A stretch of DNA of 64,000 bases from an uncultured Candidatus Berkelbacteria bacterium (GTDB taxonomy: Bacteria > Patescibacteriota > UBA1384 > 2-12-FULL-50-11): positions 15,999-79,998 of the forward strand of contig CAIMEH010000013.1 in the NCBI GenBank assembly GCA_903839975.1, given 5' to 3'. The notes below the pieces were generated by a model. The model made no database searches. It was not told where the DNA came from and saw only the letters and a list, made by a program, of their open reading frames with translations. The position numbers and the translations under genes were made by a program. Each line of letters begins with the position of its first letter. Position 1 is the first letter of the stretch. Of the stretch, positions 1,210 through 62,689 are shown in pieces.

Positions 1210-3048
1210 ATGAGTGAAAAGAAGACGAAGAAGTTAACCTTCGCCAAGTTTTTAGATATTTTCAAGAAACAATCTTCCTGGAAGAAGTGGATTTTTGGCT
1301 CGCTCGCAGTAGTTGCCGTTATCGGCTTAGCCTACTTAACTTTTTCCCTGATTTATATCGGTAAAACTTACCCACGTTTAACAGTCGGTGGCGTAAAAGT
1401 TAGTGGGTTAAAGCAAGCCCAGGTTAAAAGTCTATTAGATGAACAGGCTAAAATAAACCAAGGTACGCCGCTAACACTCGTCTTCCAAGACAAAACTTCA
1501 ACCTTAAAACCAGAAGATATTAGCTGGCAGCTCGATACCGATGCAACGGCAACAAGTGCCGTTAATATCGGTCGCCAGAATGGTTTTTGGCGTAGCCTTT
1601 GGGCTCAGCTAAAATCACCTTTCGTAGTTACGGAAGTGCCGATGGCGATTACTTATAATTCTGATTCTTTAGCTAATAAACTTTCGGCTATCACTGGGCC
1701 AATTAACAAGCCGGCCACTAACGCTCAAGGGCAGTTTGCTGGCGGCAAGCTAACACTTACAGCAGAGAAGTCTGGCCAGGTAATCGATACCGATACAGTT
1801 TCCGCTCAAATTCTCTCGGCCTGGAGCCACTTTCAAACTATAAGCATTGCCATGCAGATGACTACGGATTTGCCGACGATTGTATTAGGCGACCAAGCTG
1901 CTCTTACCGCGCAGGCAAACAGTCTGGCGGCCACAAAATTAACCTTAAAGTGGCCAGCTGGCCAGGCAACGCTTTCTAAGACGGATGTCGAGCAGATGGT
2001 AGATTTTACCGCTGGTGATGCAAATACTGATGGCACCAAAACGCTAACGGCCCAGTTCACAGCCGATAAGATTCACCAGTTCCTACTAACTTATGCCACT
2101 ACAAATATCGATAAACCAGCGGTCGAACCGAAGCTGGCGATGGTTAATAACGTTCTAACCGTAACGACGCCAGCGGTTGGTGGCACGATTACTGATCTTG
2201 AATCTTCAACGCCGATAATTTTAGCCGAGCTTCGGTCGACTGACACAGCCAAGGTAGCGACTCTAACAATGAAGAGCCAAGATCCAACCATCAATCAGAA
2301 TAATCTGGCCTCGCTAGGCATTACTAGTTTAATCGGTGAAGGTATCACCAGCTTCGCTGGCTCACCGGCCAACCGAATAGTAAATATTAATCGAGGAGTA
2401 ACATTATTAAATAGTATTCTTGTTAAGCCAGGAACGGAGTTCTCTACACTGGATAATCTTGGCGAGATTGATGCCGCCAACGGTTTCGGCCAGGGCTTGG
2501 TGATAAAAGATAATCGAACTGTACCGGATTATGGCGGTGGGCTCTGCCAGGTTTCAACTACCCTTTTTCGCGCCGCCTTGGCTTCTGGGTTAAAGATTAC
2601 CGAGCGCCAGAATCATGCTTACAGAGTTAGCTACTACGAGCCGCCAGTTGGTTTGGATGCCACTATCTTTGATCCAGCTCCAGATTTTAAGTTCCTAAAC
2701 GACACCCCTGGCTATATTCTGGTTCAGGGAAAAGTTGTCGGCAATAAAGTAACTTTTGATTTCTACGGTACTAGTGACGGCAGAACTTCGGTTGTCTCGA
2801 CACCACAGATTCTAAGCACCACACCGGCCGGTGATCCGATTTATACCAATACCGATACGCTTAACATTGGGACCACTCAACAAATTGAAAAGGCCCATGA
2901 CGGTGCTCTGGCATCTGCGACTTACACAGTTACTCGTAACGGTGTGGTAATTAACCAACAGACGTTTAAGTCGAAATATAAACCTTGGCCGGCTCAGTAT
3001 TTAGTTGGCACCCACGACCCAGCTACTGGCCCAGCACCTACGCAGTAG
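1210..3048 (+). CDS. VanW-family protein with N-terminal TM anchor
   Basis: N-terminal hydrophobic segment. The C-terminal region (PGTEFSTLDNLGEI...GGGLCQVSTTLFRAAL...YRVSYYEPPVGLDATIF) resembles the VanW domain. Confidence 0.7.
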   Translation: MSEKKTKKLTFAKFLDIFKKQSSWKKWIFGSLAVVAVIGLAYLTFSLIYIGKTYPRLTVGGVKVSGLKQAQVKSLLDEQAKINQGTPLTLVFQDKTSTLKPEDISWQLDTDATATSAVNIGRQNGFWRSLWAQLKSPFVVTEVPMAITYNSDSLANKLSAITGPINKPATNAQGQFAGGKLTLTAEKSGQVIDTDTVSAQILSAWSHFQTISIAMQMTTDLPTIVLGDQAALTAQANSLAATKLTLKWPAGQATLSKTDVEQMVDFTAGDANTDGTKTLTAQFTADKIHQFLLTYATTNIDKPAVEPKLAMVNNVLTVTTPAVGGTITDLESSTPIILAELRSTDTAKVATLTMKSQDPTINQNNLASLGITSLIGEGITSFAGSPANRIVNINRGVTLLNSILVKPGTEFSTLDNLGEIDAANGFGQGLVIKDNRTVPDYGGGLCQVSTTLFRAALASGLKITERQNHAYRVSYYEPPVGLDATIFDPAPDFKFLNDTPGYILVQGKVVGNKVTFDFYGTSDGRTSVVSTPQILSTTPAGDPIYTNTDTLNIGTTQQIEKAHDGALASATYTVTRNGVVINQQTFKSKYKPWPAQYLVGTHDPATGPAPTQ

Positions 3049-4714
3049 TTTTTCGGTGGTGAGCTACGGCTCGACCGAGCGGTAACGGAATCAGGATATT
3101 TTTGTGCTCGTTTTGGGCGATAGCCGATTTGATAAAACCATCAAATAACGGATGAGGTTGGTTCGGGCGGCTCTTAAACTCTGGGTGAAACTGGCAGGCC
3201 ACAAAATACGGATGGTCTTTCAGCTCGATAATCTCTACAAGATTTAACTCTGGGTTCACGCCGGAGATTACGAAATTTTCATCGTTCTCAAATTGCTTTC
3301 GGAAATCATTATTAAACTCGTAGCGATGGCGATGTCGTTCCAGAATATGATCCTTGCCATAAAGCTGAAAAGTTTTCGTTTTGTGAATTATCTTGCAGGC
3401 AAAATTTCCCAGTCTCATCGAGCCGCCGTAGTGGCTAGTCTGCATTTTTTTAATCTGGTCGGGCATTAGGTCGATAACTGGGCTGCCATTCTCGGCAAAT
3501 TCGGTTGAGCTGGCATCTTTTATTCCCAGAACATTACGGCCGTATTCGATACAGGATAGTTGCATACCTAGGCACAAACCAAGTAGCGGAATTCGATGTT
3601 CGCGGGCAAACTTGATAGCGGTGATAATACCTTCAATTCCACGATTGCCAAATCCACCAGGCACACAGATGCCGTCGTAACCCCGAAGCTTTTCTGGGCC
3701 TTCTTGCTCAATCATCTCGCTATCCACCATCTGAATATTAACCTTATACGGCGTCTGCCAGCCGGAAGATTTTAGGGCCTCAATAACAGAGAAATAAGTG
3801 TCGCTCATGGTCATATATTTGCCGACCATGGCGATGGTAATCTCCTTGGTTCGGTTTCGGCGAATGCGGGAAACCAGCAACTTCCAGTCTTTGCCGTTGT
3901 GGTGTTTCATCTTCAGGCCGAATTTTTTCAGAACTAAGGTATCCACTTTGTATTTGCCCAAAGTCAGTGGCACGGCGTAGACGGTATCAGCCGTTTCTAG
4001 CGGAATAACTGCTTCTTCTTTTAGTCCTGAGAAAAGAGCAATTTTGCGCAGATGCTCTTTATATACCGGATAATCTGAGCGGCAGAAGATAATACTTGGG
4101 TGGATTCCTCTCGATTGCAGATCGTGAATAGAGTTCTGAATTGGTTTAGTTTTAATCTCGTGCGAAGCCTCAAGATACGGCAAGTAGCCAACTTGAACAA
4201 ACATCACGTTCTCCGGCTGCTCCATCGCTACCTGACGAGCCGCCTCCACAAAGTGAGTGCTCTCGATATCGCCGATGGTGCCGCCTATCTCGGTAATTAG
4301 TATCTGGGCTTTGTTTTTTTCAGCCGCTTGGAAAAGTCGTTGCTTAACCTCATTGGTAACATGTGGGATAACCTGAACGGTTTTGCCTAAGTATTTTCCC
4401 TGACGTTCTTTCTCTATAACTGCCCCGTAGATCGAGCCGCTCATCACCGAGGACTCGCGCGACATCTCTTCGTTTAAAAATCTTTCATAATGGCCCAAGT
4501 CCAGATCGGTTTCGGCGCCGTCGGCAGTAACAAAACACTCGCCGTGTTCGGCGGGGTTCAAAGTGCCGGCATCAGTATTTAAGTAGGGGTCAAACTTTTG
4601 GAGGAAAACGCGATAGCCCCGATTCTTCAGGAGGTTTCCAAGCGAGGCGGCCACAATCCCCTTGCCGACCCCAGATAAAACACCTCCAGTCACAAAGACA
4701 AACTTTGTTGACAT
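3038..4714 (-). CDS. pyrG: CTP synthase
   Basis: N-terminus MSTKFVFVTGGVLSGVGKGI. The C-terminal glutamine amidotransferase region has GLCLGMQ. Length 558 aa. Confidence 0.95.
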   Translation of the reverse strand: MSTKFVFVTGGVLSGVGKGIVAASLGNLLKNRGYRVFLQKFDPYLNTDAGTLNPAEHGECFVTADGAETDLDLGHYERFLNEEMSRESSVMSGSIYGAVIEKERQGKYLGKTVQVIPHVTNEVKQRLFQAAEKNKAQILITEIGGTIGDIESTHFVEAARQVAMEQPENVMFVQVGYLPYLEASHEIKTKPIQNSIHDLQSRGIHPSIIFCRSDYPVYKEHLRKIALFSGLKEEAVIPLETADTVYAVPLTLGKYKVDTLVLKKFGLKMKHHNGKDWKLLVSRIRRNRTKEITIAMVGKYMTMSDTYFSVIEALKSSGWQTPYKVNIQMVDSEMIEQEGPEKLRGYDGICVPGGFGNRGIEGIITAIKFAREHRIPLLGLCLGMQLSCIEYGRNVLGIKDASSTEFAENGSPVIDLMPDQIKKMQTSHYGGSMRLGNFACKIIHKTKTFQLYGKDHILERHRHRYEFNNDFRKQFENDENFVISGVNPELNLVEIIELKDHPYFVACQFHPEFKSRPNQPHPLFDGFIKSAIAQNEHKNILIPLPLGRAVAHHRKTTA

Positions 4715-4775
4715 CTAGCCCACCCTACGGGCGAACCGTCAAAGTGTCAAGGACACCAATTTACTGCTTAAACCC

Positions 4776-4804
4776 TTGACTTTTCAGGTTAAATATGCTA
4801 AGCT
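4776..4804 (+). promoter_or_regulatory. sigma70-like promoter TTGACT-17-TAAGCT upstream of the 4840 ORF; near-identical to the promoter of the DGR target gene
   Basis: cttgacttttcaggttaaatatgctaagct is read directly from the sequence. The same ~30-bp string recurs at 32548-32578. Confidence 0.5.
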
Positions 4805-4839
4805 GGCCATAATATCTTGTTCCTTAAGGGGGCCGAAAA

Positions 4840-5430
4840 TTGGACAAACTCGAGTTTGGAAGGGTTAAGCCTTTCTATTTTAGATTTAAAGAAGACTTCC
4901 TAAAGGAAGTCACGACCGAACAGGAAAAAACCTGTTTGTTTATGTTCTTCACGGACGAGAATGCTCTGGTCAGGACGGTGCCGCCTTCACCGGCGGAGGA
5001 GATTGGTATCATCAGTCGAATTCATAAAGAGTTCGAGAAGATGAGGCAATTCGGGTCAAAGCATTTTCCGAGAGAAGAGTGCACGTACGAGGCAACCGAG
5101 CGCACCTATCAAAGTGCTCTCAAGAAGCTTCGTGACCGATGCGCTCTGTATCATGAAGAGGTGCACGACTGTCGGCACGAGCCGCTTGCAGTTATTCCGC
5201 TTGATTGGTGGGTAATTAAGCTGCTTAAGGCGACTTGCTACGACTCAACCGTCCGGATCGCCAGAGCGACTGACCGACAGCTGCTTTCGATTAGGGGTAT
5301 CGGACCAGTGACTCTAAAGCAGATTCGGGTTTTTATTCCGTTTGATCCGGAAGCTGGCAAGGTCGCACGCGACAGGCGCAGCCGAATCAATGCCCAGATC
5401 CGAGCCGGCCAAAAAGGTCTCGGAATCTGA
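4840..5430 (+). CDS. hypothetical protein with C-terminal helix-hairpin-helix-like motif; TTG start
   Basis: A good RBS (aaggggg) lies 7 nt before the TTG. The motif LLSIRGIGPVTLKQIR is HhH-like. Confidence 0.5.
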   Translation: MDKLEFGRVKPFYFRFKEDFLKEVTTEQEKTCLFMFFTDENALVRTVPPSPAEEIGIISRIHKEFEKMRQFGSKHFPREECTYEATERTYQSALKKLRDRCALYHEEVHDCRHEPLAVIPLDWWVIKLLKATCYDSTVRIARATDRQLLSIRGIGPVTLKQIRVFIPFDPEAGKVARDRRSRINAQIRAGQKGLGI

Positions 5431-52299: not shown

Positions 52300-54102
52300 T
52301 TACTTAACCGAAGATTTCGGTGTATGTGTTGGCGAAAGCGATCGAGCCTTGGCAGCAGGCTGGATCATAGTTATCGGGTTGTTGATGGGTACGATAGAAC
52401 CGTAGTGACGTGTTAAAGTCACCGATTTTACCGCCTGTCTTTCGCTGTTTACGGCTGCACGGACGATTACTTTTGTGGTGCCGCACTGGTATTGCGGGGT
52501 AAAGTTCCATATAGGATCTTTGTTTGAATTTAACCACAAATGAACATCCTTTGACCAAGTTCCGTAAGGCGCTAATACAAGCAAACTATCAAGCATGTAA
52601 AAGTGATACGGAAAGAATTGACCGTCGGGTAAACCAGGGTTTAACCAACTTGTGTCGAGCGAGTTGCCGTACTGGTCGTAGTCAGCCATTGTCAGGTCGT
52701 GAACTGGTAGGTAACTGCCGGTGTTGTTCTTCAGAATTATGGTGTAGTTCCAACCATCACTGGCAGCATCGACGTTATTGCTTGCTAGACTGACGTCGAT
52801 GGCCGCATCTGAGTGGTTTTTAACGAAATTTACCACTTCGGCCATCACGTTTTTGTCGGTTTTGATCGAGCAGTGTCCGGCACCTTGAACGATGTGTCGT
52901 TCGATAGCACCGGAAGTAATCTCTTCCATAACCACGTTTTTGGCCAGGGCGCTGTCTTGGGGGACAACGCTGTCCTTGCTACCAGCAAAGAAGTAGTAAT
53001 TAACGGCAACTCGTTGGTTGTAGCCGTTGTTCAGGTCGGGAAGGTTGAGGGCATTTAGGTAGCTGCTGCCAGTTGCCATTTCCGTGACGCAACCCTCTTG
53101 TTCGTACTGTGGCGTCGGACAGATACTGAACGGGTCGTTCAAAAGCTGATCCATATCACGTTTCAAGTTTGTTAATGGATCGGCGATTGTCGCGCCGGTA
53201 TTGGGAGTGCCGTAGGCAATCACATCGCTTATCTTAGTTGGGTCAATCTTGTGTTCCACAAGATCTCGGCCGATAAGACCACCACGCGAGTGCAGGAAAA
53301 GCATAATGCTTTTGTCTAGGGCGCTAATCGAATTCAGTTGTTGTTGGAAGTAGCTAACCGCCGTTGCACCACCATCGAGGTAGTTATACGGCATGCCGTA
53401 GGTAAGATACGCCCCGAAGTTCAAGTGGAGATAGTTGGCCAAGTCGGTAATAGAACCGACGTTGTCAAGAATGCCGTGTCCGACAAAGATTCTTTTTCCG
53501 GCTGTGTTAGACGAGTTGTTTAACAGTAGCGGTGTTGGCGAATCGGTATCGGGAACATTGTCTATAAACGAAGCTACCAACCAGTTCCAAGTGTTGGCGA
53601 TTGTCTGGCCGACGCTGCGATCTTGTAACGATCGGCCGGAAGCGGTGCTTAGCTGGAAAGGCGTAGCGCCTGTGCCAGTGTTAGTGGTGCTCCAGTGCCA
53701 GATCGTCGGATCATTGGCGTCGCGGTAGGCGACGATTTTTATCTCGTTGCTGTTACCACCGGCGATTGAGATATTAATCGGTTGCTGATTGGCAGCCACC
53801 GATTTTAGCTCAGTTACGTTAAAGATTTTGAGCTTAGTGTTGGCTGGCGGGTACAAGAAACCCGTTGAGTTGAATAGGTCGTTCGTTAAGGTCGTACCAG
53901 TTGGGAAGGTTGCCGTAGAAGCAGTGATTGTTTCGTTGCCGTAAACTTGGTTGACGGCCTGATTTGGGGCAACGTTTAGAACGTCAGTTTTAATTGGTTT
54001 GGTTGGGTCTGGGGGTACGGATGGGCCTGAGCCTCCACCACCACAACTTACGAGAGAGATGCAGGCAGCAATGCCAGCAAAAAGTAACGAGATTCGTTTC
54101 AT
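52300..54102 (-). CDS. lipoprotein with alpha/beta-hydrolase (lipase/esterase-like) core
   Basis: Lipobox LVSC after the signal peptide. The LHSRGG nucleophile elbow (GxSxG variant) and a GAGHCS region are present. Confidence 0.55.
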   Translation of the reverse strand: MKRISLLFAGIAACISLVSCGGGGSGPSVPPDPTKPIKTDVLNVAPNQAVNQVYGNETITASTATFPTGTTLTNDLFNSTGFLYPPANTKLKIFNVTELKSVAANQQPINISIAGGNSNEIKIVAYRDANDPTIWHWSTTNTGTGATPFQLSTASGRSLQDRSVGQTIANTWNWLVASFIDNVPDTDSPTPLLLNNSSNTAGKRIFVGHGILDNVGSITDLANYLHLNFGAYLTYGMPYNYLDGGATAVSYFQQQLNSISALDKSIMLFLHSRGGLIGRDLVEHKIDPTKISDVIAYGTPNTGATIADPLTNLKRDMDQLLNDPFSICPTPQYEQEGCVTEMATGSSYLNALNLPDLNNGYNQRVAVNYYFFAGSKDSVVPQDSALAKNVVMEEITSGAIERHIVQGAGHCSIKTDKNVMAEVVNFVKNHSDAAIDVSLASNNVDAASDGWNYTIILKNNTGSYLPVHDLTMADYDQYGNSLDTSWLNPGLPDGQFFPYHFYMLDSLLVLAPYGTWSKDVHLWLNSNKDPIWNFTPQYQCGTTKVIVRAAVNSERQAVKSVTLTRHYGSIVPINNPITMIQPAAKARSLSPTHTPKSSVK

Positions 54103-54247: not shown

Positions 54248-54916
54248 CTAACGGATCTTGAGGTCGCTTGCCTTTTGGCTTTTGACGTAAGGGTCAGTGG
54301 CAACAATTAAGGCATTGGAGGCCGCTTTGGCGATTGGGCCGGTCTTAGCGCCGCCCGAGAACCAGTTAAAGCCGAAGGTTAGCCAACCGGCTGCCACCAT
54401 CCAATCGGGTACTTTTGTTTGGTTATTTGCTTCGATGGTGCAGACTGGGGTTGCAAGATCGCCAGCGTTAACATCGACCATAACGAGGTTAAGGTTCGCC
54501 TTGGTCTTTGTCTCAGTTCCTCGAAGCGTTACAACCGAGTAGGCGTGAAAGTTGTAGTTGGCGTAGACGATCATGTCGACGTCTAGCTTCTTCCCTATTT
54601 GCAGCAAATCCTTGGGATCGGCTGTCATGTTCGGGTTGTCGCTCTGTTTATAGAAGTCGGGATTTACGTCCTTGAGCGCGGTTTGGACTTCTGCACTGTC
54701 AACCATCTTGTAGTCTTTCAAAATGAAAGCCAAGGTGTCGTCGAAAGCTTGAGGTGGCTCCTTGTGTCCAGTGTAAACCTTGCCATCCTCGAACATTCGA
54801 ACGATAACTGCGCAGTATTTAAGGCGCGGTTTTTCCTTGTTCTCTTGGGCGAACGTGGTAACCGATAGTAAGGCGGCCATAGCCGCAATGACGATTGTTC
54901 TAGCGATTTTATTCAC
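54248..54916 (-). CDS. secreted hypothetical protein; GTG start after RBS aggagg
   Basis: Signal peptide VNKIARTIVIAAMAALLSVTTFA. Confidence 0.5.
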   Translation of the reverse strand: MNKIARTIVIAAMAALLSVTTFAQENKEKPRLKYCAVIVRMFEDGKVYTGHKEPPQAFDDTLAFILKDYKMVDSAEVQTALKDVNPDFYKQSDNPNMTADPKDLLQIGKKLDVDMIVYANYNFHAYSVVTLRGTETKTKANLNLVMVDVNAGDLATPVCTIEANNQTKVPDWMVAAGWLTFGFNWFSGGAKTGPIAKAASNALIVATDPYVKSQKASDLKIR

Positions 54917-55037
54917 TCCGATCCTCCTGAATGTTGTGCCTATTAAGGCGTGCAATAACAGGCATATTGTACAGGTAATTGCTGTTTTACTCAATGGTTT
55001 TTGGTTTTGTTTTAATGGTCAGCTACAATAACCAGAG

Positions 55038-55685
55038 ATGCTTATCGCCTTTTTTCAAATTATCGCCACCTCTGTTGTTTGGGCGGTGTTAAAAATTTTT
55101 ACTCGTTTCGAGATACACGGCACGGAAAATTTGAAAGAAGTTAGTCGGCCATTTGTGGTTGTTGCAAATCATGAAAGCGTGCTGGATCCGCCGCTGATTG
55201 GGGTGATGTTGCTTCATCGACCACAGCTTTTTCCGATTCGTTTTATGACCAAAGATCTTTTGATCTATATCCCAATTTTCGGGCAGATTATTTGGTTATT
55301 GGGCGCTTTCAGGGCTCGCAAGAAGAAGGGTATTGGACGGTCGTTATTGGCGCCGGTTAAAATTCTTGAAGGTAGAAATGGCGTGATGATGTTCCCAGAA
55401 GCGCATATTATTCACGAACGGGCACATTTGGGCGAGGGTCGTCGTGGTGCGGCAATTTTGGCATTAACAACTAAGGCTCAGCTACTGCCTGTTTCTTTGC
55501 ATACTCCGGCTAATTTGAACCTGTTTACCTTTATTTTCACCAGGCCAAAAATCGTTGTTCGTGTCGGTACGCCGTATTATTTAAATAACCTGGATTACCC
55601 TGACTTCTCCGACGAAAACACCTTTGCCGCCACCAAAGTAATTATGCAAAAAATCGCCGACTTATATTTCCAGCACAAGTACTAA
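55038..55685 (+). CDS. plsC: 1-acyl-sn-glycerol-3-phosphate acyltransferase
   Basis: HxxxxD acyltransferase motif (VVANHESVLDPP) and the FPEAHII motif. Confidence 0.8.
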   Translation: MLIAFFQIIATSVVWAVLKIFTRFEIHGTENLKEVSRPFVVVANHESVLDPPLIGVMLLHRPQLFPIRFMTKDLLIYIPIFGQIIWLLGAFRARKKKGIGRSLLAPVKILEGRNGVMMFPEAHIIHERAHLGEGRRGAAILALTTKAQLLPVSLHTPANLNLFTFIFTRPKIVVRVGTPYYLNNLDYPDFSDENTFAATKVIMQKIADLYFQHKY

Positions 55686-55709
55686 GTTGATAATTGGTAC
55701 TATCAGGTA

Positions 55710-55738
55710 TTGACAGAGTATTTTTATAGTTGTATATT
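55710..55738 (+). promoter_or_regulatory. consensus-like sigma70 promoter TTGACA-17-TATATT driving precursor A and its maturase
   Basis: ttgacagagtatttttatagttgtatatt. Confidence 0.65.
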
Positions 55739-55785
55739 TTTCGTGATTGTTGAGGGGTCCGTACCCTAACATGGAGGTAAGTGAC

Positions 55786-55932
55786 ATGTCACTCGAAGAG
55801 TTGAAAAAGCTCTCGATCTCCACTTGTAATCTCGCGGTCAATTCGGTGCTAAGCAACGAATGTGACGGGGGTGACGACGATTGCGTCGACGGTCAGGACT
55901 CTGACGACGACTGCACAACGGCTGGCGGCTAG
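55786..55932 (+). CDS. RiPP precursor-like peptide A (48 aa) with Asp/Cys-rich core
   Basis: RBS ggaggt sits 7 nt before the ATG. Sequence: MSLEELKKLSISTCNLAVNSVLSNECDGGDDDCVDGQDSDDDCTTAGG. It lies immediately upstream of an rSAM/SPASM gene. Confidence 0.65.
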   Translation: MSLEELKKLSISTCNLAVNSVLSNECDGGDDDCVDGQDSDDDCTTAGG

Positions 55933-55953
55933 TTCGCAGGTCGGCATACTTCT

Positions 55954-55981
55954 GTGGGCGCGTACTTTTGTTCGCGCCCAC
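55954..55981 (+). terminator. attenuator-type GC hairpin between precursor A and the maturase (gtgggcgcg-N10-cgcgcccac followed by tattcttt)
   Basis: 9-bp GC stem with a weak T tract, suggesting partial termination. Confidence 0.55.
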
Positions 55982-55999
55982 TATTCTTTGGAGAAAAAT

Positions 56000-57223
56000 A
56001 TGGATCATAAAGCATATAAGCTAATCGTTGACGGTAGGGCGATAGTTTTCCTTCCAACACTAGGAAAATGTTTCGAAGTTTCTCCAGAGAAACTCGATGA
56101 ACTGCCCGACTACATAACCGCAGACGACTCTGTGAAACCTGTCGTCAAGAAGAAATACACCAGCGCCACCCTTGTACTAACCGATGATTGCAACTTGGCG
56201 TGTTCGTACTGCTATGAATTCGGGAAGCCAAGGCGCGACCCAATAACGATGAGTGTGGAGACGATTGAGAAAGCGATAAAAAGTCTAGTCGGGCGTGCCG
56301 TAAGTGAAAAAACTTCTGGCGTCAGACTCTACTTTTTTGGCGGCGAACCAACTTTGCGTCTCGATGAAATTATTTACGCCAAGCAACTCCTGGACAAGAA
56401 ATGCGGAGAGCTTGGCTTAAAAACCAGGTACTGCATTACTACTAATTGTTGCATGTCGGACGAAGCTGCTAATTGGGTCATGGAAAACATTGATTCAATT
56501 GGCATATCTTTCGACGGCAACAAGAGGATACAGGACAGGCAAAGAGATATGAGCTTTGATCAAGCTTTTGATCGAGCGAAACAATTCTTCTCTGTCTGTG
56601 GCAGTAAGAAAGTGAGCATTAGAGTGACAGTTTCGCTATGGAGTGCTCGTAAAATGGAAGAGATTGTCAGCTTCTTTGCGGCGAGCTTTCCCGGAGTAAA
56701 AATCTATCTTGAACCATTATTCAAGATAGGTAGAGGCAAAACAACTTCGCTTGAGATGCCAAATCCAGACAGATTCTTCAACGGATGTCTGGCTTGCTAT
56801 AAACTTGCCAAGACACTTGGGGTTGATGTTGTAACTAGCATTGGCAAACCGAGGAACGACACACCGTACTTCTGCGGTGCGCATGGTGGAGGACAAGTCT
56901 TCGCGCCTAATGGCGAAGTTCTTACCTGTCCAAGAATGTCATTGAGTTGTGAGCCCGGAAGAGACTTCTTCGTTTGCGGAGAAATTACAAATGATGGCAT
57001 TGTCTTTGATCGGGCAAAAACAGAATCGTTGGCGAGTCTACTAGACTACTCAAAGATACCTAAGTGTGCCGATTGCTTTGCAAGATATGCCTGTAGGGGC
57101 GACTGTCCGGCCAATAAAGCAGTGATTAACCAAGCTACCTTCTTCCATGAGCCTAGCTATAGGTGCGAAGCAATTAAGCGTTTCGTGTCAAAACTTTTGC
57201 TCTTGGAACTCGATTCAAGCTAA
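56000..57223 (+). CDS. radical SAM / SPASM-domain peptide maturase A
   Basis: CxxxCxxC (CNLACSYC) rSAM cluster. The C-terminal SPASM Cys pattern is CGAHGGG...CP...CGE...CADCFARYACRGDCP. Start placed at MDHKAYK after RBS ggagaaaaat. Confidence 0.85.
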   Translation: MDHKAYKLIVDGRAIVFLPTLGKCFEVSPEKLDELPDYITADDSVKPVVKKKYTSATLVLTDDCNLACSYCYEFGKPRRDPITMSVETIEKAIKSLVGRAVSEKTSGVRLYFFGGEPTLRLDEIIYAKQLLDKKCGELGLKTRYCITTNCCMSDEAANWVMENIDSIGISFDGNKRIQDRQRDMSFDQAFDRAKQFFSVCGSKKVSIRVTVSLWSARKMEEIVSFFAASFPGVKIYLEPLFKIGRGKTTSLEMPNPDRFFNGCLACYKLAKTLGVDVVTSIGKPRNDTPYFCGAHGGGQVFAPNGEVLTCPRMSLSCEPGRDFFVCGEITNDGIVFDRAKTESLASLLDYSKIPKCADCFARYACRGDCPANKAVINQATFFHEPSYRCEAIKRFVSKLLLLELDSS

Positions 57224-58144
57224 TTCACCCGGTGTTTCGCACTCTGCGACGCACCGGGCTATTTTTTTAACAAAATCCGCATCAATTGATTGGTTAGAAA
57301 TAATATATTCTTGCGCTAATGGCATTCCAATTTTGCCAGATTCGTAAATTATTTTGTTCAGTCTGTTTCTTTCTGATTTGCTCTCGGACCTTTCTTCGGA
57401 ATCCGTTATACCAAAATACTTTTCTGCAAAAATGCCACGTGGGGCAAACAGATTAACAATTGCTTCGCGAGTTAGTTGTGTTTCTTGGTTGTAAAAATCT
57501 TTCTCAACTGACTGACTTAAAAATTCTCTATATCGACTTGTTTCAAACACACTATGAATAATCTCGTGCAATACTAGTAAAATTATCCGTCGGACTAGTA
57601 TATCGCTCTCAATATTAAATACGGATAAGCCAATAAATTCGCGACTTAAAGATTTACCAAAATCGGCGCCGTATCTTGCTGGTTTGGAGTTTATTGCCAG
57701 CAACTCGATAGTAACTGGCTTGGAAATGTCTGGATTGAAGTTGCCGTAAAGTACAGACAGATCTTTAAGCGCCAGCTCAATCTCCTTTGAGTATTTTTTT
57801 ACTCCTTGATCCAAAGCTTCCCTAAAACTTTCTAATCTCTTTTGGTCGTCGGCCCAAGTTTCTTCAACAAATACTTGTAACTCTTCGAAATGTTTTGCAA
57901 TCGAAGCTGGAAAGATAGATGTGTCGCTTTCTGACAATGATTCTAGTAAGTCTGCTTTCTTGACGGTATCGAGAGATTTGAAATAACTTTTGAAATTAGA
58001 GTAATATTCAGTATCTTTCCAAGTTTGTTGCCTTATCTCTTCTGCAATCTCTAGGAATTTTTTTGAGCCGCCTTCGCTCCCGCTAGCTAGTAGTAGTGAA
58101 TAATAAACGTTAAATGCTTTATTGACCTCAAATTTTATCTCCAT
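57215..58144 (-). CDS. HExxH-motif putative zinc metallopeptidase (candidate leader peptidase); convergent with maturase A
   Basis: LVLHEIIHSVFE. The last ~15 codons overlap the rSAM-A terminator hairpin. Confidence 0.5.
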   Translation of the reverse strand: MEIKFEVNKAFNVYYSLLLASGSEGGSKKFLEIAEEIRQQTWKDTEYYSNFKSYFKSLDTVKKADLLESLSESDTSIFPASIAKHFEELQVFVEETWADDQKRLESFREALDQGVKKYSKEIELALKDLSVLYGNFNPDISKPVTIELLAINSKPARYGADFGKSLSREFIGLSVFNIESDILVRRIILLVLHEIIHSVFETSRYREFLSQSVEKDFYNQETQLTREAIVNLFAPRGIFAEKYFGITDSEERSESKSERNRLNKIIYESGKIGMPLAQEYIISNQSIDADFVKKIARCVAECETPGELA

Positions 58145-58337
58145 TTACTTGCAGAATACGCCTTGAGCAAGATAGATAAAAGAGGTGCTTTTTTGACGCG
58201 GAGGGGGAGTAAATAAATTGGGATGTGTTTTGGCTCATTGCATTTATTCTGGCCACTCATTGTAGCTATAAATTTTCGTAAAAATGTGCTACTATGACCG
58301 CATCCTGCCCATCAAGGGGCACCTTAAGGTGATCGAC

Positions 58338-58472
58338 ATGAAAACAAAGGCACGAGTTCGTGTTCCTTCCTGCTCTCAGCTCAAAAAGCTGAGGGGCAGA
58401 ATTAAGGGCTCAGCGTCTGCGGCCAATTGCGGTTCAAGCCAGTGTGCTTGTTCCTGTGCCTGCAGAAACTGA
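58338..58472 (+). CDS. RiPP precursor-like peptide B (44 aa) with Cys-rich C-terminal core
   Basis: RBS aaggtga precedes the ATG. Sequence: MKTKARVRVPSCSQLKKLRGRIKGSASAANCGSSQCACSCACRN. Confidence 0.55.
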   Translation: MKTKARVRVPSCSQLKKLRGRIKGSASAANCGSSQCACSCACRN

Positions 58473-58483
58473 ACATCGTCAAC

Positions 58484-58522
58484 GGGGTGGGAGTAGTAAT
58501 ACTTTCCGCCCCACTATTTTTT
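58484..58522 (+). terminator. attenuator/terminator hairpin between precursor B and the maturase (ggggtgg...ccgcccc followed by actatttttt)
   Basis: The same architecture and the same cccactatt tail as the hairpin after precursor A. Confidence 0.55.
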
Positions 58523-58539
58523 GATATTCAAGGAGCAAA

Positions 58540-59502
58540 ATGATGGGAAGCGAATTAAAGCTTTCGAGATTCGTTCATGCATTCGATATTGAAGATTCCC
58601 TGGCGCTCTTCCACTCATTTCGCGTGGATACTGTGTTTTTGCCGAAGGAGTCTCGCGACTTGTTGGATAGGCTAAGACTAGGAGTTTCTCCTACCGAGGC
58701 GAGGAAAATGTTTGGCACGAAGTCGACTAAAACTCTGACTGATAAATATTTTCTGGTCGACTCGTCATACGACGAAATTGCTGAGTTACAGAAATGCGTT
58801 CGTAAGGATGTTTCGGGAACGTACTTCCATACGATGTACCTTCTTCTTGCAGAACCGTGCAACCTCGACTGCGGGTATTGCTTCTTTCAGGACGAGATGC
58901 CGGTTAGAAAAACAGGCGACCGTATCATGAAGGAGTCGACGGCCAAAAACGCACTGGATTTATTCAGTACATGGGCTGAGAAGAAACAACCCGCGACAAT
59001 TATCCTCTATGGAGGCGACCCGTTGATAAACATGAGGACGTTAAAGTTTGCTATCTCCTACACTGACCAATTGGTAAGCGAAGGTAAATTGCACGCTGAC
59101 ACGGTTGTCTCGATTGTCTGCAACGGCACTCTAATCAACGAGGACTTTGTTGAGTTCCTGAAGAGCTTCGGCCGAAGAGTGTCTCTAGGGATATCTCTCG
59201 ACGGCCCGCGGCACATTCATGACTTTTGGCGAAAAGACAAGAAGAAGCGGGGCTCGTATGACCGAGCGATTGCAGGGTATACACTTGCGAAGGAGGGAGG
59301 CTTGAGCCCGTCTATATCTTGCACGCTTGCGCCCAACAATCTCCCTGAGATTGACGCAATCACTGACTGGCTAATTGAAATGGAGCCGGCTGGAATGAGT
59401 TTCAATCTACTGGCCGATACATCCAAATTGCACATGGATGCTAAATACGCCGAAGACGCAACTAACGCTATGATCAGGGCGTTTAAGCGTTTAAGCGTTT
59501 AA
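58540..59502 (+). CDS. radical SAM maturase B, rSAM core. It is terminated by a stop created within a (gcgtttaa)x3 tandem repeat and continues in the SPASM ORF 59508-59921.
   Basis: CNLDCGYCFF CxxxCxxC motif. Confidence 0.8.
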   Translation: MMGSELKLSRFVHAFDIEDSLALFHSFRVDTVFLPKESRDLLDRLRLGVSPTEARKMFGTKSTKTLTDKYFLVDSSYDEIAELQKCVRKDVSGTYFHTMYLLLAEPCNLDCGYCFFQDEMPVRKTGDRIMKESTAKNALDLFSTWAEKKQPATIILYGGDPLINMRTLKFAISYTDQLVSEGKLHADTVVSIVCNGTLINEDFVEFLKSFGRRVSLGISLDGPRHIHDFWRKDKKKRGSYDRAIAGYTLAKEGGLSPSISCTLAPNNLPEIDAITDWLIEMEPAGMSFNLLADTSKLHMDAKYAEDATNAMIRAFKRLSV

Positions 59503-59507
59503 GACAG

Positions 59508-59921
59508 GTGGGTATCTATGAGGACCGAATGATGCGGAAGGTGGACTCATTCACCGACGGCAGGAGATTCTACAAGGACTGTGCTGGCTACGGGGAACAA
59601 GTTGTAATCGCGCCCGATGGAGATATCGGACCATGCCATGCCCATACGGCAACTCGTAAATACTTCCGGGCAAACGTTAACACGCCTGGAGAGTTCGATC
59701 CTAGGAACGATTCAACTTTCGTTGAATGGAGTCAAAGGTCGCCCTTTACAATGCCCGAGTGTATTGGCTGCGAGGCTCTCGGCGTATGTGGTGGCGGTTG
59801 TGCCGCTAATGCCGAGAGAAGATCGGGAAGTATGCGTGGACTAGACGACTTGTTTTGTATTCACGCTAAGCAGGTCTTGGCCTGGATGATAACCGACCTG
59901 TACCTCGGTATGAATAGCTAG
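59508..59921 (+). CDS. SPASM-domain C-terminal fragment of maturase B (separate ORF in this assembly)
   Basis: CIGCEALGVCGGGCAANAE SPASM Cys cluster. Its frame is restored to the rSAM core if one 8-bp repeat unit is removed. Confidence 0.7.
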   Translation: MGIYEDRMMRKVDSFTDGRRFYKDCAGYGEQVVIAPDGDIGPCHAHTATRKYFRANVNTPGEFDPRNDSTFVEWSQRSPFTMPECIGCEALGVCGGGCAANAERRSGSMRGLDDLFCIHAKQVLAWMITDLYLGMNS

Positions 59922-59948
59922 CTCGCTAACAGCGAAACTAACAATGGC

Positions 59949-60635
59949 CTATCCCAGCAGGGATAGGCCTCTTTCTATAAATTCGTTAATATCTTTAATT
60001 GCAATATCGGTAAGTTCCTTTTGAGATTTCACCAACTCAGGATAGTTATGGTCGGTATAAGCACCGGTTTTGTCCCAAGGCCATAAGCTTTTTAATACAG
60101 GGTCTAATCCAGTAATTGCAAATGCATATATTTCTGCAAGTTTCCAAGTGATTTGGTCTGGTACGTCTGGATAACCCGAGCGCATTTTAGAAAAAAATTG
60201 GGTAATTACTAATTCGTGAGCTGTAATTCGTCGTTGTTCTCTGAAATCTTTATTCCATATACGCGCAACTTTATTTCCGCCCCAATTACTTATTCCTGGA
60301 TGGAATAAACTGACAACACATTCATAATTCTTATGAGCGAGCGGAAATTTTGTTAGTTCGGCAAGGCGCTTGAAAAATTTTTCATCAATTTCATCCCAAC
60401 CTTTTTGGTATTCAGATATTACTTTGTCTAGTTTGTCACCAGTTTCTGAATATCTTTTGTCGACAATCTTTTCAGAAAGTTTTTTATCACCTCTCGCAAT
60501 CCTTTTTGCATCTCCCGTATTAATATTCATAACTTGAGCATATTCAAGAATACCTTCTTCGCTTCTGCCCTGAAGCATTATAGAAATCATCTCGGTGTCG
60601 TATTCTTTGTCTTTAATAAATTTAAGTAGTGACAT
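59949..60635 (-). CDS. hypothetical protein (228 aa), convergent with maturase B
   Basis: ORF that shares the upstream motif ttttgacgcggagggggag with the HExxH gene. Confidence 0.45.
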   Translation of the reverse strand: MSLLKFIKDKEYDTEMISIMLQGRSEEGILEYAQVMNINTGDAKRIARGDKKLSEKIVDKRYSETGDKLDKVISEYQKGWDEIDEKFFKRLAELTKFPLAHKNYECVVSLFHPGISNWGGNKVARIWNKDFREQRRITAHELVITQFFSKMRSGYPDVPDQITWKLAEIYAFAITGLDPVLKSLWPWDKTGAYTDHNYPELVKSQKELTDIAIKDINEFIERGLSLLG

Positions 60636-60720
60636 ACTGCGATTATATACTCTCGATTAGCCAATTACACAATTTTGACGCGGAGGGGGAGGTTGGGTAA
60701 TAGAAATTAAACCGCCGCCC

Positions 60721-61008
60721 CTATTGGGGGCGGCGTTCATGATTGAGCGTCCAGTAGTACTGGAAGACGGCAGCAGCAGCAATGAATACTGCTGGCGTGT
60801 CAGATATCTTTAAGAACGTGTCTGGCTTTGTCCAGCCATACAGCGCCCAAAAAAGAATATTAAAGAATACGAGTAGGATGATATAGGGCGATACGTCCCT
60901 AACAGATCCGGTCTTCCGAACTCTTAACATCTGGAGCGGCAAACCGACCCAAGTAGTTATGATGGAAAAACTAACGGCGAAGAATCCAAAAACTGTGCTT
61001 GGTATCAA
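60721..61008 (-). CDS. SemiSWEET/PQ-loop family small transporter (95 aa, 3 TM)
   Basis: PQ-loop motif GLPLQML. Confidence 0.6.
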   Translation of the reverse strand: MIPSTVFGFFAVSFSIITTWVGLPLQMLRVRKTGSVRDVSPYIILLVFFNILFWALYGWTKPDTFLKISDTPAVFIAAAAVFQYYWTLNHERRPQ

Positions 61009-61118: not shown

Positions 61119-61664
61119 ATGATTTCTTTTTTGCGTGCCAAGCCGAAAGTTGAAAAAATTCTCGTCAAAGACGACCTTTTTTCGAAGGTAGCAGAGATGC
61201 GCTATAAGATTTACTGCGAAGAACTTGGGTTTCTAGAGAAGAAAAAATACCCAGAGAAGAGAGAGATGGACGAGTACGATGGTCAGTCGATTCACGTGGT
61301 AGTTAAGGTCGGTAACCGCATGGCAGGTTACGCCAGAGTTATTCTTCCCAATGGCAAGAAGTTGCCTATATTTGAAAACTTTAAAGTTCCGGAAGAGAAA
61401 GATCCTCATCATGCCTGTGAAATATCTCGTTTTATGATTTCCAAAGCTTATAGACATAAAGATGAAACAAGACGTGAAATATTTAAGCTTCTAGCCGAAG
61501 AAATTTTGAAGATAGTTGAAGAGCAAGAAGTAAAAGTTGTTTATGCAGTTGTTGAGGAGTGGCTTCTGAAAAGTCTTCAAAAGAGAGGGTATGAATTTGA
61601 AAAAATTGGAGAAGGACACTTCCACATGGGTGCGGTGACTTACCCAATTAAGCTCGTGCTATGA
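61119..61664 (+). CDS. GNAT-fold N-acyltransferase of the LuxI/FeeM (autoinducer-synthase-like, N-acyl amino acid synthase) family
   Basis: MRYKIYCEELGF, EYDGQSIHVVVKVGNRMAGYARV and EISRFMISKAYR align with the LuxI/FeeM conserved blocks. Confidence 0.65.
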   Translation: MISFLRAKPKVEKILVKDDLFSKVAEMRYKIYCEELGFLEKKKYPEKREMDEYDGQSIHVVVKVGNRMAGYARVILPNGKKLPIFENFKVPEEKDPHHACEISRFMISKAYRHKDETRREIFKLLAEEILKIVEEQEVKVVYAVVEEWLLKSLQKRGYEFEKIGEGHFHMGAVTYPIKLVL

Positions 61665-62689
61665 GCTCTCTGGCCCAATTTTTCACGAGCTGGGCAAGTA
61701 CGATTCAGTCAAGCTACGGTGTAAATCCGTGGATATTTATTGTTATTTACCTCGCTACCCTACCTTTTACTTGGTGGTTATTTTTTCTGATAGTTTTCTC
61801 GCTAAAAGATAAAAAATACTCCAAAGCCGGTTATTTTATTGTGCTCGAGCTAATTTTACTTGCGCTACCATACCTGTATCTTCTGATCTATATGCAAAAT
61901 ATTCACTGGTTGATAAGGGTGGCGGTAGTTATTCTAATATTCTGGTCATTTGTTTCTTTAAGAAAAAGGCTGCTACGCAAACAAAACGACTGGGATGATA
62001 TTGCTAAAGACTATGATTCAATCTCGAATATCTCAAAGGCTCATAAAGAAAAGATTGGCTATGTGTCAGAACTGGCGACCAAAAATAGTCCGAAAACAAT
62101 TCTAGATTTAGGTTGTGGCAGCGGCGTGATAGAAAAGAAGCTAGATGAGATGGGGTATAGAGGCGAGGTTACTTCTCTCGATTCTTCGGAAGAGATGTTG
62201 AAGATTGCCAAGAAGCACAGCTATAAAAACTTCAAACCCAATTTTATCTACCAGGACTTGAATGCTCAGCTACCCTTCAGGGAAGAGAAATTTGATTCAA
62301 TTATTATGGTCAACGTTCTGTTCTGCCTAAGGGACCAGAAGTCCTTTTTAGAGAGTGTGAATAAATTGCTAACAACGGATGGCAGTTTTGTATTGGTAAA
62401 TCCAAAGCCGATACCAACAACTGCCAACTTTTTCTCGGAACATTTCAAAGGTCTAAACCTGGTGGGGAAAATAAGGGAAATAGGAAGAGTAATTATTAAC
62501 ATTCCTGGATTAATCCATCTATTAGTATTCCAGAACAAATTAGATTCACAGGAAAAAAATAAAGATTCTTACGACTACAAAGATAAAGACGAGCTTGCAA
62601 CCCTCCTTAAAGGAGCTGGTTTGCTGGTGGAAAAAGTGGAGGAGATACAGGCTAACCAGAACTGGCTTTTCTACTGTAAAAAAGCCTAA
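61661..62689 (+). CDS. membrane-anchored class I SAM-dependent methyltransferase
   Basis: N-terminal 3-4 TM helices. SAM-binding motif I ILDLGCGSGV, with post-I and motif II also present. Confidence 0.75.
   Translation: MSSLAQFFTSWASTIQSSYGVNPWIFIVIYLATLPFTWWLFFLIVFSLKDKKYSKAGYFIVLELILLALPYLYLLIYMQNIHWLIRVAVVILIFWSFVSLRKRLLRKQNDWDDIAKDYDSISNISKAHKEKIGYVSELATKNSPKTILDLGCGSGVIEKKLDEMGYRGEVTSLDSSEEMLKIAKKHSYKNFKPNFIYQDLNAQLPFREEKFDSIIMVNVLFCLRDQKSFLESVNKLLTTDGSFVLVNPKPIPTTANFFSEHFKGLNLVGKIREIGRVIINIPGLIHLLVFQNKLDSQEKNKDSYDYKDKDELATLLKGAGLLVEKVEEIQANQNWLFYCKKA

Follow-up and report, generated by a model that had tools for sequence, protein, structure and literature searches.

The ranthipeptide freyrasin of Paenibacillus polymyxa derives from PapA, a short precursor with a Cys/Asp-rich core, and the papA gene is followed by the gene for PapB, a radical S-adenosylmethionine (rSAM) enzyme with a SPASM region. 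PapB links Cys to the C-beta of Asp and accepts Cys-Xn-Asp spacings with n = 0-6 (PMC9413430). In the SCIFF systems (CteA/CteB and Tte1186a/Tte1186), a precursor of approximately 45 aa with Cys in its C-terminal half is paired with an rSAM-SPASM maturase, and in CteB a substrate Cys binds to the auxiliary cluster at a site left open (PMC8172795). QhpD, the rSAM-SPASM maturase of the quinohemoprotein amine dehydrogenase gamma subunit QhpC, forms Cys-Asp and Cys-Glu methylene thioethers in a protein substrate (PMC8172795). Here we describe a locus with similarities to each of these systems, which lies within a 64,000-nucleotide stretch (the window) of contig CAIMEH010000013.1 from an uncultured Candidatus Berkelbacteria bacterium. 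The locus consists of a 48-codon open reading frame (ORF) for a peptide with an acidic, Cys-containing C-terminal half (the window peptide), a gene for an rSAM-SPASM enzyme (matA), and a convergent gene for a 309-aa protein with an HExxH motif (Table 1). We conclude with high confidence that the ORF is a real gene and that it encodes the cognate substrate of matA. We also find it moderately probable that the peptide is the precursor of a peptide that is ribosomally synthesized and then post-translationally modified (RiPP), which would be thioether-modified by matA and relieved of its leader by the HExxH protein.

The tie between the peptide and a single clade of maturases carries the first of these conclusions. 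Five maturase homologues with 35-40% identity (P0003-P0007) came from the protein collection and were traced to their contigs. A single-sequence pattern scan of genome contigs with matA returned no maturase relatives, and an alignment query of the contigs retrieved more, including the four at loci L009-L012. Identical copies of the matA protein (P0002) and of the window peptide are also on record, the former in the protein collection and the latter as a gene called on a 541-bp metagenome contig. In every matA-clade locus with readable DNA, a small Cys/acid-rich ORF adjoins the maturase gene, and a related or similarly Cys/acid-rich peptide occurs in 12 of 12 distinct loci (the window and 11 others). 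This count includes L002 and L007, whose peptides score under the profile threshold, and leaves out the P0005 contig, for which a 49-aa upstream gene is on record. The host genomes of the relatives are metagenome-assembled genomes (MAGs) of uncultivated bacteria, one of which (L010) is labeled as Parcubacteria (Parcubacteria group bacterium CG1_02_44_31). The first-pass annotation of this DNA had staked its prediction on the small ORF being conserved in related genomes and under coding constraint, and both expectations were borne out, the former by its presence beside homologous maturases in the 11 other loci. Between the window and L003 peptide genes, 44 aligned codons divide into 10 identical, 13 synonymous and 21 non-synonymous, and the differences at codon positions 1, 2 and 3 number 16, 14 and 29, respectively. 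The DNA flanking the two peptide genes is approximately 52-55% identical, which together with the excess of differences at the third codon position indicates that conservation acts at the protein level.

Searches that began from the peptide led back to the same enzymes. A search with an alignment of the family peptides returned 9 clusters out of 5.8 billion proteins, and a profile hidden Markov model (HMM) of the family matched only 8 representatives at E <= 1e-3 among 1.84 billion proteins, with E-values of 1e-10 to 1e-17. The three new members found by peptide similarity alone (P0026-P0028) all adjoin a matA-clade enzyme, at 33-37% identity and E-values of 1e-56 to 1e-78. Overall, each representative that could be assigned to a locus neighbors a maturase of this clade (33-40% identity). 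When the peptide profile was run on all reading frames of all 95 fetched loci, matches were confined to matA-clade loci, with none at E < 0.01 in the 78 loci that contain more distant rSAM-SPASM enzymes. By inspection, no similar peptides were found in L013-L030, which are the closer-lying of the loci with more distant enzymes. Because the peptide gene always lies beside one rSAM clade and a protease, we take the peptide to be, most probably, the substrate of a new pathway of the thioether type in uncultivated bacteria. No match to the window peptide was found in Pfam or NCBIfam at E-values up to 10, and none of 9 family peptides (the window peptide and 8 relatives) matched the SCIFF precursor HMM TIGR03973 at E <= 10. 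This outcome agrees with the earlier expectation that the peptide would belong to no described precursor family. We found no specific prior description of the peptide/matA system in the searchable literature. Based on its absence from Pfam, NCBIfam and that literature, the family is apparently small and undescribed.

The window peptide divides into a leader of approximately residues 1-23 (MSLEELKKLS...) and an acidic core of approximately residues 24-48, NECDGGDDDCVDGQDSDDDCTTAGG. The core contains 3 Cys, 9 Asp, 1 Glu and no Lys or Arg, for a net charge of -10 over 25 residues. The first-pass annotation had counted four Cys in the core, whereas the core it quoted (NECDGG...TTAGG) has three, namely C26, C33 and C43; the fourth, C14, lies in the leader with no adjoining Asp and is replaced by Ser, Val, Ala or Ile in homologues. 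Among 516 small ORFs of 30-120 aa in the 64-kb window, the window peptide is the only one with at least 3 Cys and at least 5 Asp/Glu in its last 25 residues, and in a six-frame scan of the window its core is the sole 25-residue stretch with at least 3 Cys and at least 8 Asp. The Cys and Asp composition of the peptide is not a feature of chance.

Across the family, leaders of 21-38 residues share the motif [ILV]-[ST]-L-E-E-L-x-x-L (M-S-L-E-E-L-K-K-L in the window) and a hydrophobic position approximately 12 residues past this motif. The cores span 22-30 residues, except for 56 in L009, and contain 3-8 Cys, 5-14 Asp plus Glu and at most 3 Lys/Arg, with net charges of -3 to -11. All 14 of 14 members carry C-x-[GD]-[DG]-x-D-S-[C/D], as in CVDGQDSD, CWGDRDSC and CNGDPDSC. 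Cys is the most conserved core residue, with C33 invariant and C26 nearly so, and acidic residues are enriched near it: the frequency of Asp/Glu relative to Cys is 0.51 at position +3 and 0.42-0.45 at positions -1 to -3, against a background of 0.30. The window core had been described as exactly the substrate expected of a ranthipeptide enzyme, with poly-Asp blocks to be sought in neighboring genomes. That description was overstated: the acidic core with its Cys motif is family-wide, and Cys/acid-rich peptides do recur in other genomes, but the poly-Asp runs are limited to the window/L003 subtype, and most relatives have Cys-Gly-Glu where the window peptide has Asp-Asp-Asp. In the window core, CX3D occurs just once, as C26-DGG-D30; successive Cys are separated by X6 and X9, the Asp positions are irregular, and there is no repeated Cys-X3-Asp/Glu.

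We examined matA for features of known thioether-forming enzymes. Pfam Radical_SAM matches the protein, which contains the rSAM cluster motif CNLACSYC (CX3CX2C; C64, C68 and C71) and a 7-Cys SPASM region (C292, C310, C356, C359, C365, C369 and C389) with the complete pattern CX9-17GX4C...CX2CX5CX3C...C. All ten of these Cys are invariant in 13 sequences. The Pfam SPASM HMM gave no match to matA, and the 25 NCBIfam families listed for it did not include TIGR04085. Seven SPASM Cys would leave two [4Fe-4S] clusters one ligand short of eight and thus predict one open iron site; CteB likewise has a 7-Cys SPASM region with an open auxiliary-cluster site. The best NCBIfam match was PapB (NF047865; 105.6 bits against a cut-off of 340, with E 2.9e-30 over 323 of the 330 positions in the profile), followed by the SCIFF maturase ScfB (TIGR03974; 88.2 bits, cut-off 425), nif11 (85.2 bits, cut-off 518.7), HxsB (82.3 bits, cut-off 370) and QhpD (TIGR03906; 82.0 bits, cut-off 453, E 3.4e-23), with TIGR04115 at 59.8 bits (cut-off 350). 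Three of the top five families (PapB, the SCIFF maturase and QhpD) form Cys thioethers. Scores under every curated cut-off indicate that matA is a member of none of these families.

Structural comparisons pointed in a similar direction. By profile, the closest solved protein to matA is CteB (E 9.6e-35). The AlphaFold model of matA has a mean predicted local distance difference test score (pLDDT) of 88.4 and a predicted template modeling score of 0.87, and Foldseek places CteB (5wgg/5why) first with template modeling (TM) scores of 0.75-0.77, followed by anSME, ChlB, SkfB and SuiB, with PqqE at TM 0.44. In the model, the N-terminal domain (approximately residues 1-40) is a small beta-sheet with one short helix, which may be a truncated RiPP recognition element (RRE).

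The third conserved element is a predicted protease. In the 309-aa protein, the LHExxHxxFE motif is invariant (HEIIHSVFE in the window), as is a downstream Glu, with H193, E194, H197, E201 and E227 shared by all 5 aligned sequences at 20-24% identity. An HExxH motif with a downstream Glu reads as the signature of a gluzincin-type zinc metallopeptidase, and from this motif and the synteny we propose the protein as the leader peptidase. Syntenic homologues occur in L003, L004/5, L006-8 and L010, and L094 has a convergent HExxH protein (HELCH) after its maturase, without a BLAST match to the window protein. In L009, L011, L012 and L091, the maturase is followed instead by an M16 peptidase; in L011, a convergent protein of 395 aa bears an HExxH motif as well (HEFLH). 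The occurrence of two alternative metalloproteases at one position argues that leader removal is a third conserved function of the system.

The first-pass annotation had also described a strong ribosome-binding site and a consensus promoter for the precursor gene, and both are in place. The Shine-Dalgarno sequence stands at a suitable distance from the ATG, and the ATG of the L003 peptide is preceded by GGAGG at an identical distance. The promoter, which is predicted by consensus match only, is the top promoter-like site within 55000-60800, a region in which the total of such sites is no higher than in shuffled sequence. An in-frame ATG at 55771-55773, 15 nt further 5', would give a 53-aa version with 5 more residues (MEVSDMSLEEL...). 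We prefer the start at 55786 because the ATG at 55771 overlaps the Shine-Dalgarno sequence and has none of its own. Longer N-termini ahead of the SLEEL motif occur in some relatives.

A GC-rich hairpin separates the precursor gene from matA. The order precursor-hairpin-maturase was found in 7 of 7 loci tested (window, L002, L003, L007, L009, L011 and L012), with z-scores of -3.0 to -3.9 in six of the seven and -0.6 in L011. The hairpin sequences are unrelated between loci, and Rfam searches of the locus and the entire window returned only two tRNAs and nothing for the hairpin, which indicates that it belongs to no known RNA family. Structure conserved without sequence fits a partial terminator or a 3' stabilizer that raises the precursor-to-enzyme ratio, and such a hairpin layout with a raised ratio is known from other RiPP operons. 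The earlier suggestion of an attenuator hairpin ahead of the maturase thus holds for the hairpin and the layout; a terminator scan did not call the hairpin.

How does this locus compare with the systems named at the outset? Its gene order and its short precursor with a Cys/Asp-rich core resemble those of PapA/PapB, and the spacings tolerated by PapB would cover all of those in the window core (PMC9413430). Unlike PapA, the window peptide does not have six regular CX3D repeats and has only three core Cys. Unlike the freyrasin system, the matA family has its own leader ([ST]LEEL) and its own core motif, an HExxH or M16 protease as partner, and hosts that are uncultivated bacteria, including a Parcubacteria MAG. 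The SCIFF systems share the precursor size, the C-terminal position of the Cys and the type of maturase; however, the six-Cys-in-45 HMM is not matched by the window peptide with its three core Cys, matA reaches 88.2 of the 425 bits required, the window core is polyanionic, and the matA family is not clostridial. QhpD is an rSAM-SPASM enzyme among the top five matches of matA, but it acts on one subunit of an enzyme complex rather than on a leader-bearing peptide, and no qhp genes were found in the window neighborhood. In the CXXX-repeat system (TIGR04114/TIGR04117, TIGR04115), Cys recurs at short regular intervals, as in the C-x-x-D-C repeats of the L005, L002 and L010 types; one family member matches TIGR04117 (E 3e-4) and the window peptide does not, and the resemblance is compositional. 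The L009, L011, L012 and L091 variants, with a small peptide, an rSAM-SPASM enzyme and an M16 peptidase, resemble the layout of PqqA/PqqE/PqqF of the pyrroloquinoline quinone (PQQ) pathway. They differ from it in having no Glu/Tyr pair and no PqqB, PqqC or PqqD, and the window has an HExxH protein in place of M16. Judged by HMM cut-offs, precursor HMMs and motif regularity, the peptide/matA system appears akin to PapA/PapB, SCIFF/CteB and QhpC/QhpD, yet outside all of them.

Based on these comparisons, we propose the following pathway. Transcription would start from the promoter at 55710-55738, and the hairpin would end or stabilize most transcripts, such that the precursor message exceeds the read-through message for the enzyme. 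matA would bind the leader, probably through [ST]-L-E-E-L and its small N-terminal beta-sheet domain. SAM would be cleaved at the CX3CX2C cluster, and the resulting 5'-deoxyadenosyl radical would abstract hydrogen at a side-chain carbon of the acceptor, a residue of the acidic core. With a core Cys bound to the SPASM auxiliary cluster at its open iron site, that Cys would then close a thioether ring, with a loss of 2 Da per ring and at most three rings. The most likely acceptors would be Asp (C-beta) or Glu (C-gamma); these are the most economical choice because PapB and QhpD use them and because Cys in this family has acidic residues as conserved partners. By analogy with those enzymes, we lean toward a Cys-derived thioether of some kind in the product, while a link specifically from Cys sulfur to Asp C-beta is a possibility that we put forward tentatively. 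The convergent HExxH protein would finally cut off the leader, leaving as product a small peptide, rigid and strongly anionic, that possibly binds metal.

Several observations weigh against this proposal. At 105.6 bits against a cut-off of 340, matA is not a PapB orthologue, and its modeled N-terminal domain is approximately 37 residues shorter than the RRE of CteB by alignment offset, with no PqqD/RRE domain recognizable by Pfam. The window core has no regular CX3D repeat, the family enrichment of Asp/Glu is at +3 and not at +4, and the core position with the highest conservation is Cys in most relatives but Asp in the window peptide. The 309-aa HExxH protein gave no Pfam, NCBIfam or PDB match in profile searches, and its single-sequence model, with a pLDDT of 37, is unusable. 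The hairpin has no strong U-tract, only the weak ACUAUUCUUU, and no exporter, transporter or immunity gene lies near the window cluster. In addition, the sactisynthases GggB and QmpB resemble ranthisynthases by sequence, and rSAM-SPASM similarity predicts chemistry poorly (PMC10288494).

This last point bears on a rival explanation, in which precursor and enzyme are the same but the bonds are sactionine links, which join Cys sulfur to an alpha-carbon (that of Gly, Asp, Ser or another residue), and the product is a sactipeptide. StsB makes Cys-Gly sactionines (PMC10288494), Gly and Ser are also abundant around the core Cys, and the structural neighbors of matA include SkfB and other sactisynthases. 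We nevertheless consider sactionines unlikely: the top family matches (PapB, ScfB and QhpD) form thioethers away from the alpha-carbon, as does CteB, the top structure, whose link is now assigned to C-gamma, and acidic residues, rather than Gly, are the most conserved feature of the core apart from Cys. Invariance of C33 and near-invariance of C26 likewise argue against matA acting on the peptide without forming any Cys thioether, whether by epimerization of Asp or Cys, by another change, or by PQQ- or mycofactocin-like excision of a cross-linked G-D-x-D-S-C region to release a small cofactor or metal chelator. Such an outcome would suit the pairing of an rSAM-SPASM enzyme with an M16 peptidase in four family loci, the cluster's want of an exporter or immunity gene, its place among housekeeping genes (HisRS and IleRS, with a tRNA synthetase adjoining in L094), and the extreme negative charge of the core, which favors cation binding. 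It fits poorly with the 7-Cys open-site SPASM pattern, which is typical of enzymes that bind a substrate Cys, and with the match of matA to PqqE, which is much weaker (TM 0.44) than that to CteB; we therefore judge it improbable.

Two further explanations dispense with the modification altogether. The peptide could be a small acidic Cys protein, binding Ca2+ or another metal or held by disulfides, whose position next to matA has no enzymatic meaning. Its composition is like that of cation-binding loops, and CxDGxDSDDDC resembles the acidic loops with which LDL-A and thrombospondin type 3 repeats bind Ca. An LDL-A or thrombospondin-like Ca-binding module was considered as a candidate and set aside without HMM support. 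An unmodified protein is very unlikely in our view, given the strict mutual association with a single rSAM clade (12 of 12 distinct loci against 0 of 78 control loci), the conserved, leader-like N-terminal half with no signal peptide, and the absence of any Pfam match to LDL-A, TSP3 or another domain. The ORF is short and ORF lists are mechanical, which leaves room for the idea of a chance reading frame in the intergenic or leader region of the maturase gene. To this we give almost no credence: the frame is conserved as protein with an excess of third-position differences, the profile singles out its relatives at E-values of 1e-10 to 1e-17 among 1.84 billion proteins, the Shine-Dalgarno sequence is correctly spaced, and the composition is unique in the window. 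Taken together, the codon-position, profile and locus-association results effectively refute a chance frame. Thioether modification of a genuine precursor by matA is the explanation that we carry forward.

Table 1. Features of the peptide/matA locus, its surroundings in the window, and family peptides from other loci (positions are those of the window; family peptides are listed by locus).
Feature	Position	Strand	Description
Sigma-70-like promoter	55710..55738	+	TTGACA-17-TATATT, upstream of precursor gene; 11/12 consensus matches
Shine-Dalgarno sequence	55773..55777	+	GGAGG, 8 nt 5' of ATG
Precursor peptide gene	55786..55932	+	48 aa, translation MSLEELKKLSISTCNLAVNSVLSNECDGGDDDCVDGQDSDDDCTTAGG*
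GC-rich hairpin	55954..55981	+	GUGGGCGCG..CGCGCCCAC, between precursor gene and matA; minimum free energy -22.7 kcal/mol, z = -3.0
matA, radical-SAM/SPASM maturase	56000..57223	+	407 aa, start behind GGAG
matA, rSAM cluster motif	56189-56212		CNLACSYC
matA, SPASM region	56873-57166		7 Cys
HExxH protein, proposed leader peptidase	57215..58144	-	309 aa, convergent; 3' end overlaps matA by 9 nt
HExxH protein, motif	57542-57568		HEIIHSVFE
Peptide B	58338..58472	+	MKTKARVRVPSCSQLKKLRGRIKGSASAANCGSSQCACSCACRN; second RiPP-like peptide/rSAM pair, span 58338-59921
Tandem repeat in matB	59479-59503		8-bp unit GCGTTTAA, x3.1
Convergent gene after rSAM B	59949..60635	-	228 aa, AHELVITQFF; second HExxH His lost
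Predicted lipoprotein	52300-54102	-	600 aa, N-terminal ...LVSCGGGG
Membrane or secreted protein	54248-54994	-	248 aa
SemiSWEET-type transporter	60721-61008	-	downstream of both systems
FeeM-like N-acyl amino acid synthase / GNAT	61119-61664		
Membrane-anchored SAM methyltransferase	61661-62689		
L003 peptide			MNIDELTRMSVGQSQLASTGAVSCEDECTDGWDSDDDCTTANG
L002 peptide			...CGPDCGGDCGSDCSSDRDECCECSDPSY
L004/L005 peptide			...CEDKCSDNCQDSDGCDGDCGGDCEDSAS
L006/L007 peptide			...SCGCEDSCGCDGDCGGDGSMPDGS (partial)
L009, L010, L011 and L012 peptides			small Cys/acid-rich ORFs of like kind

The neighbors of the cluster in the window encode a lipid acyltransferase, a SemiSWEET protein, a FeeM-like acyl-amino-acid synthase, a methyltransferase, HisRS and IleRS. 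Methyltransferases are also found near the L009 and L091 clusters. On the other side, the predicted lipoprotein has weak alpha/beta-hydrolase and DUF7379 matches and the 248-aa protein is without a family match; neither is tied to the peptide system in other loci. Additional genes adjoin the cluster elsewhere in the family. In L006 (2601-4506, minus strand), and also in L007 and L008, a 142-aa GNAT acetyltransferase and a second, 472-aa rSAM-SPASM enzyme are present, which may be extra tailoring genes. Approximately 1.5 kb upstream of the L009 cluster (1929-2414, plus strand), a 161-aa protein has a Cys/Asp-rich tail, ...NADCTVDCRDDCSNCSQNSCTK, like the peptide cores, and could be a fused or alternative substrate. 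The matA homologue of L010 (3373-4869) is in two overlapping frames, 3471-4640 and 4483-4869, and the L010 peptide has a 20-residue C-terminal extension that is lacking in its closest relatives, P0022 and P0024, which suggests frameshifts through decay or sequencing error.

A second RiPP-like pair (system B) lies immediately downstream of the matA system. Between peptide B and its rSAM-SPASM gene, matB, stands a hairpin that resembles a terminator and has a U-run (z = -3.6); matB is closest to the FibroRumin maturase TIGR04136 (113 + 137 bits, cut-off 400). An exact tandem repeat of 8 bp splits matB, and deletion of one repeat unit yields a continuous 457-aa matB that aligns over the junction with its L091 homologue (E 4e-62); the split could mean that matB is a pseudogene, that it is switched by strand slippage, or that the assembly is in error. 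Relatives of the convergent 228-aa protein carry AHELLHFIFF (L091 920-1618 and L009 7311-8003), and the loss of the second HExxH His in the window fits decay of system B. Kinship of this protein with the HExxH protein of the matA locus was considered and rejected (hhalign probability 0.6%). System B is unrelated to the matA system and looks inactivated. On the L091 contig (1-5168, JGI Ga0265296_1002255) the two systems again adjoin, with, in order, a matB homologue, a 232-aa HELLH protein, a split matA homologue (136 + 293 aa), an M16 peptidase and a peptide of the window family, and they may travel together.

A broader interpretation is that the family constitutes a new RiPP class, largely limited to bacteria of the candidate phyla radiation that are uncultivated and have small genomes. 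The class would have a leader of its own, a separate maturase clade without a canonical RRE, and a separate, unannotated HExxH peptidase. It would yield a cross-linked, polyanionic Cys/Asp peptide or a fragment cut from the conserved G-D-x-D-S-C segment, serving as a metal chelator or peptide-derived cofactor and not as an antibiotic, and the type or topology of the cross-link could be undescribed. We regard this combination as doubtful and offer it as speculation.

New rSAM-RiPP families are a regular yield of genome mining, and the find is in that sense incremental rather than surprising: a solid, testable lead of moderate interest. It adds a defined, testable family of the thioether type, complete with precursor, maturase, protease, motifs and 12 loci. 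The apparent lack of a full RRE in matA may explain why RRE-based surveys would miss the family. Should matA indeed join Cys to Asp across irregular spacings, the peptide-stapling chemistry for which PapB is already in use would gain a second enzyme, distant from the first. At least one member comes from a genome of the Parcubacteria, a group whose natural-product chemistry is nearly unexplored.

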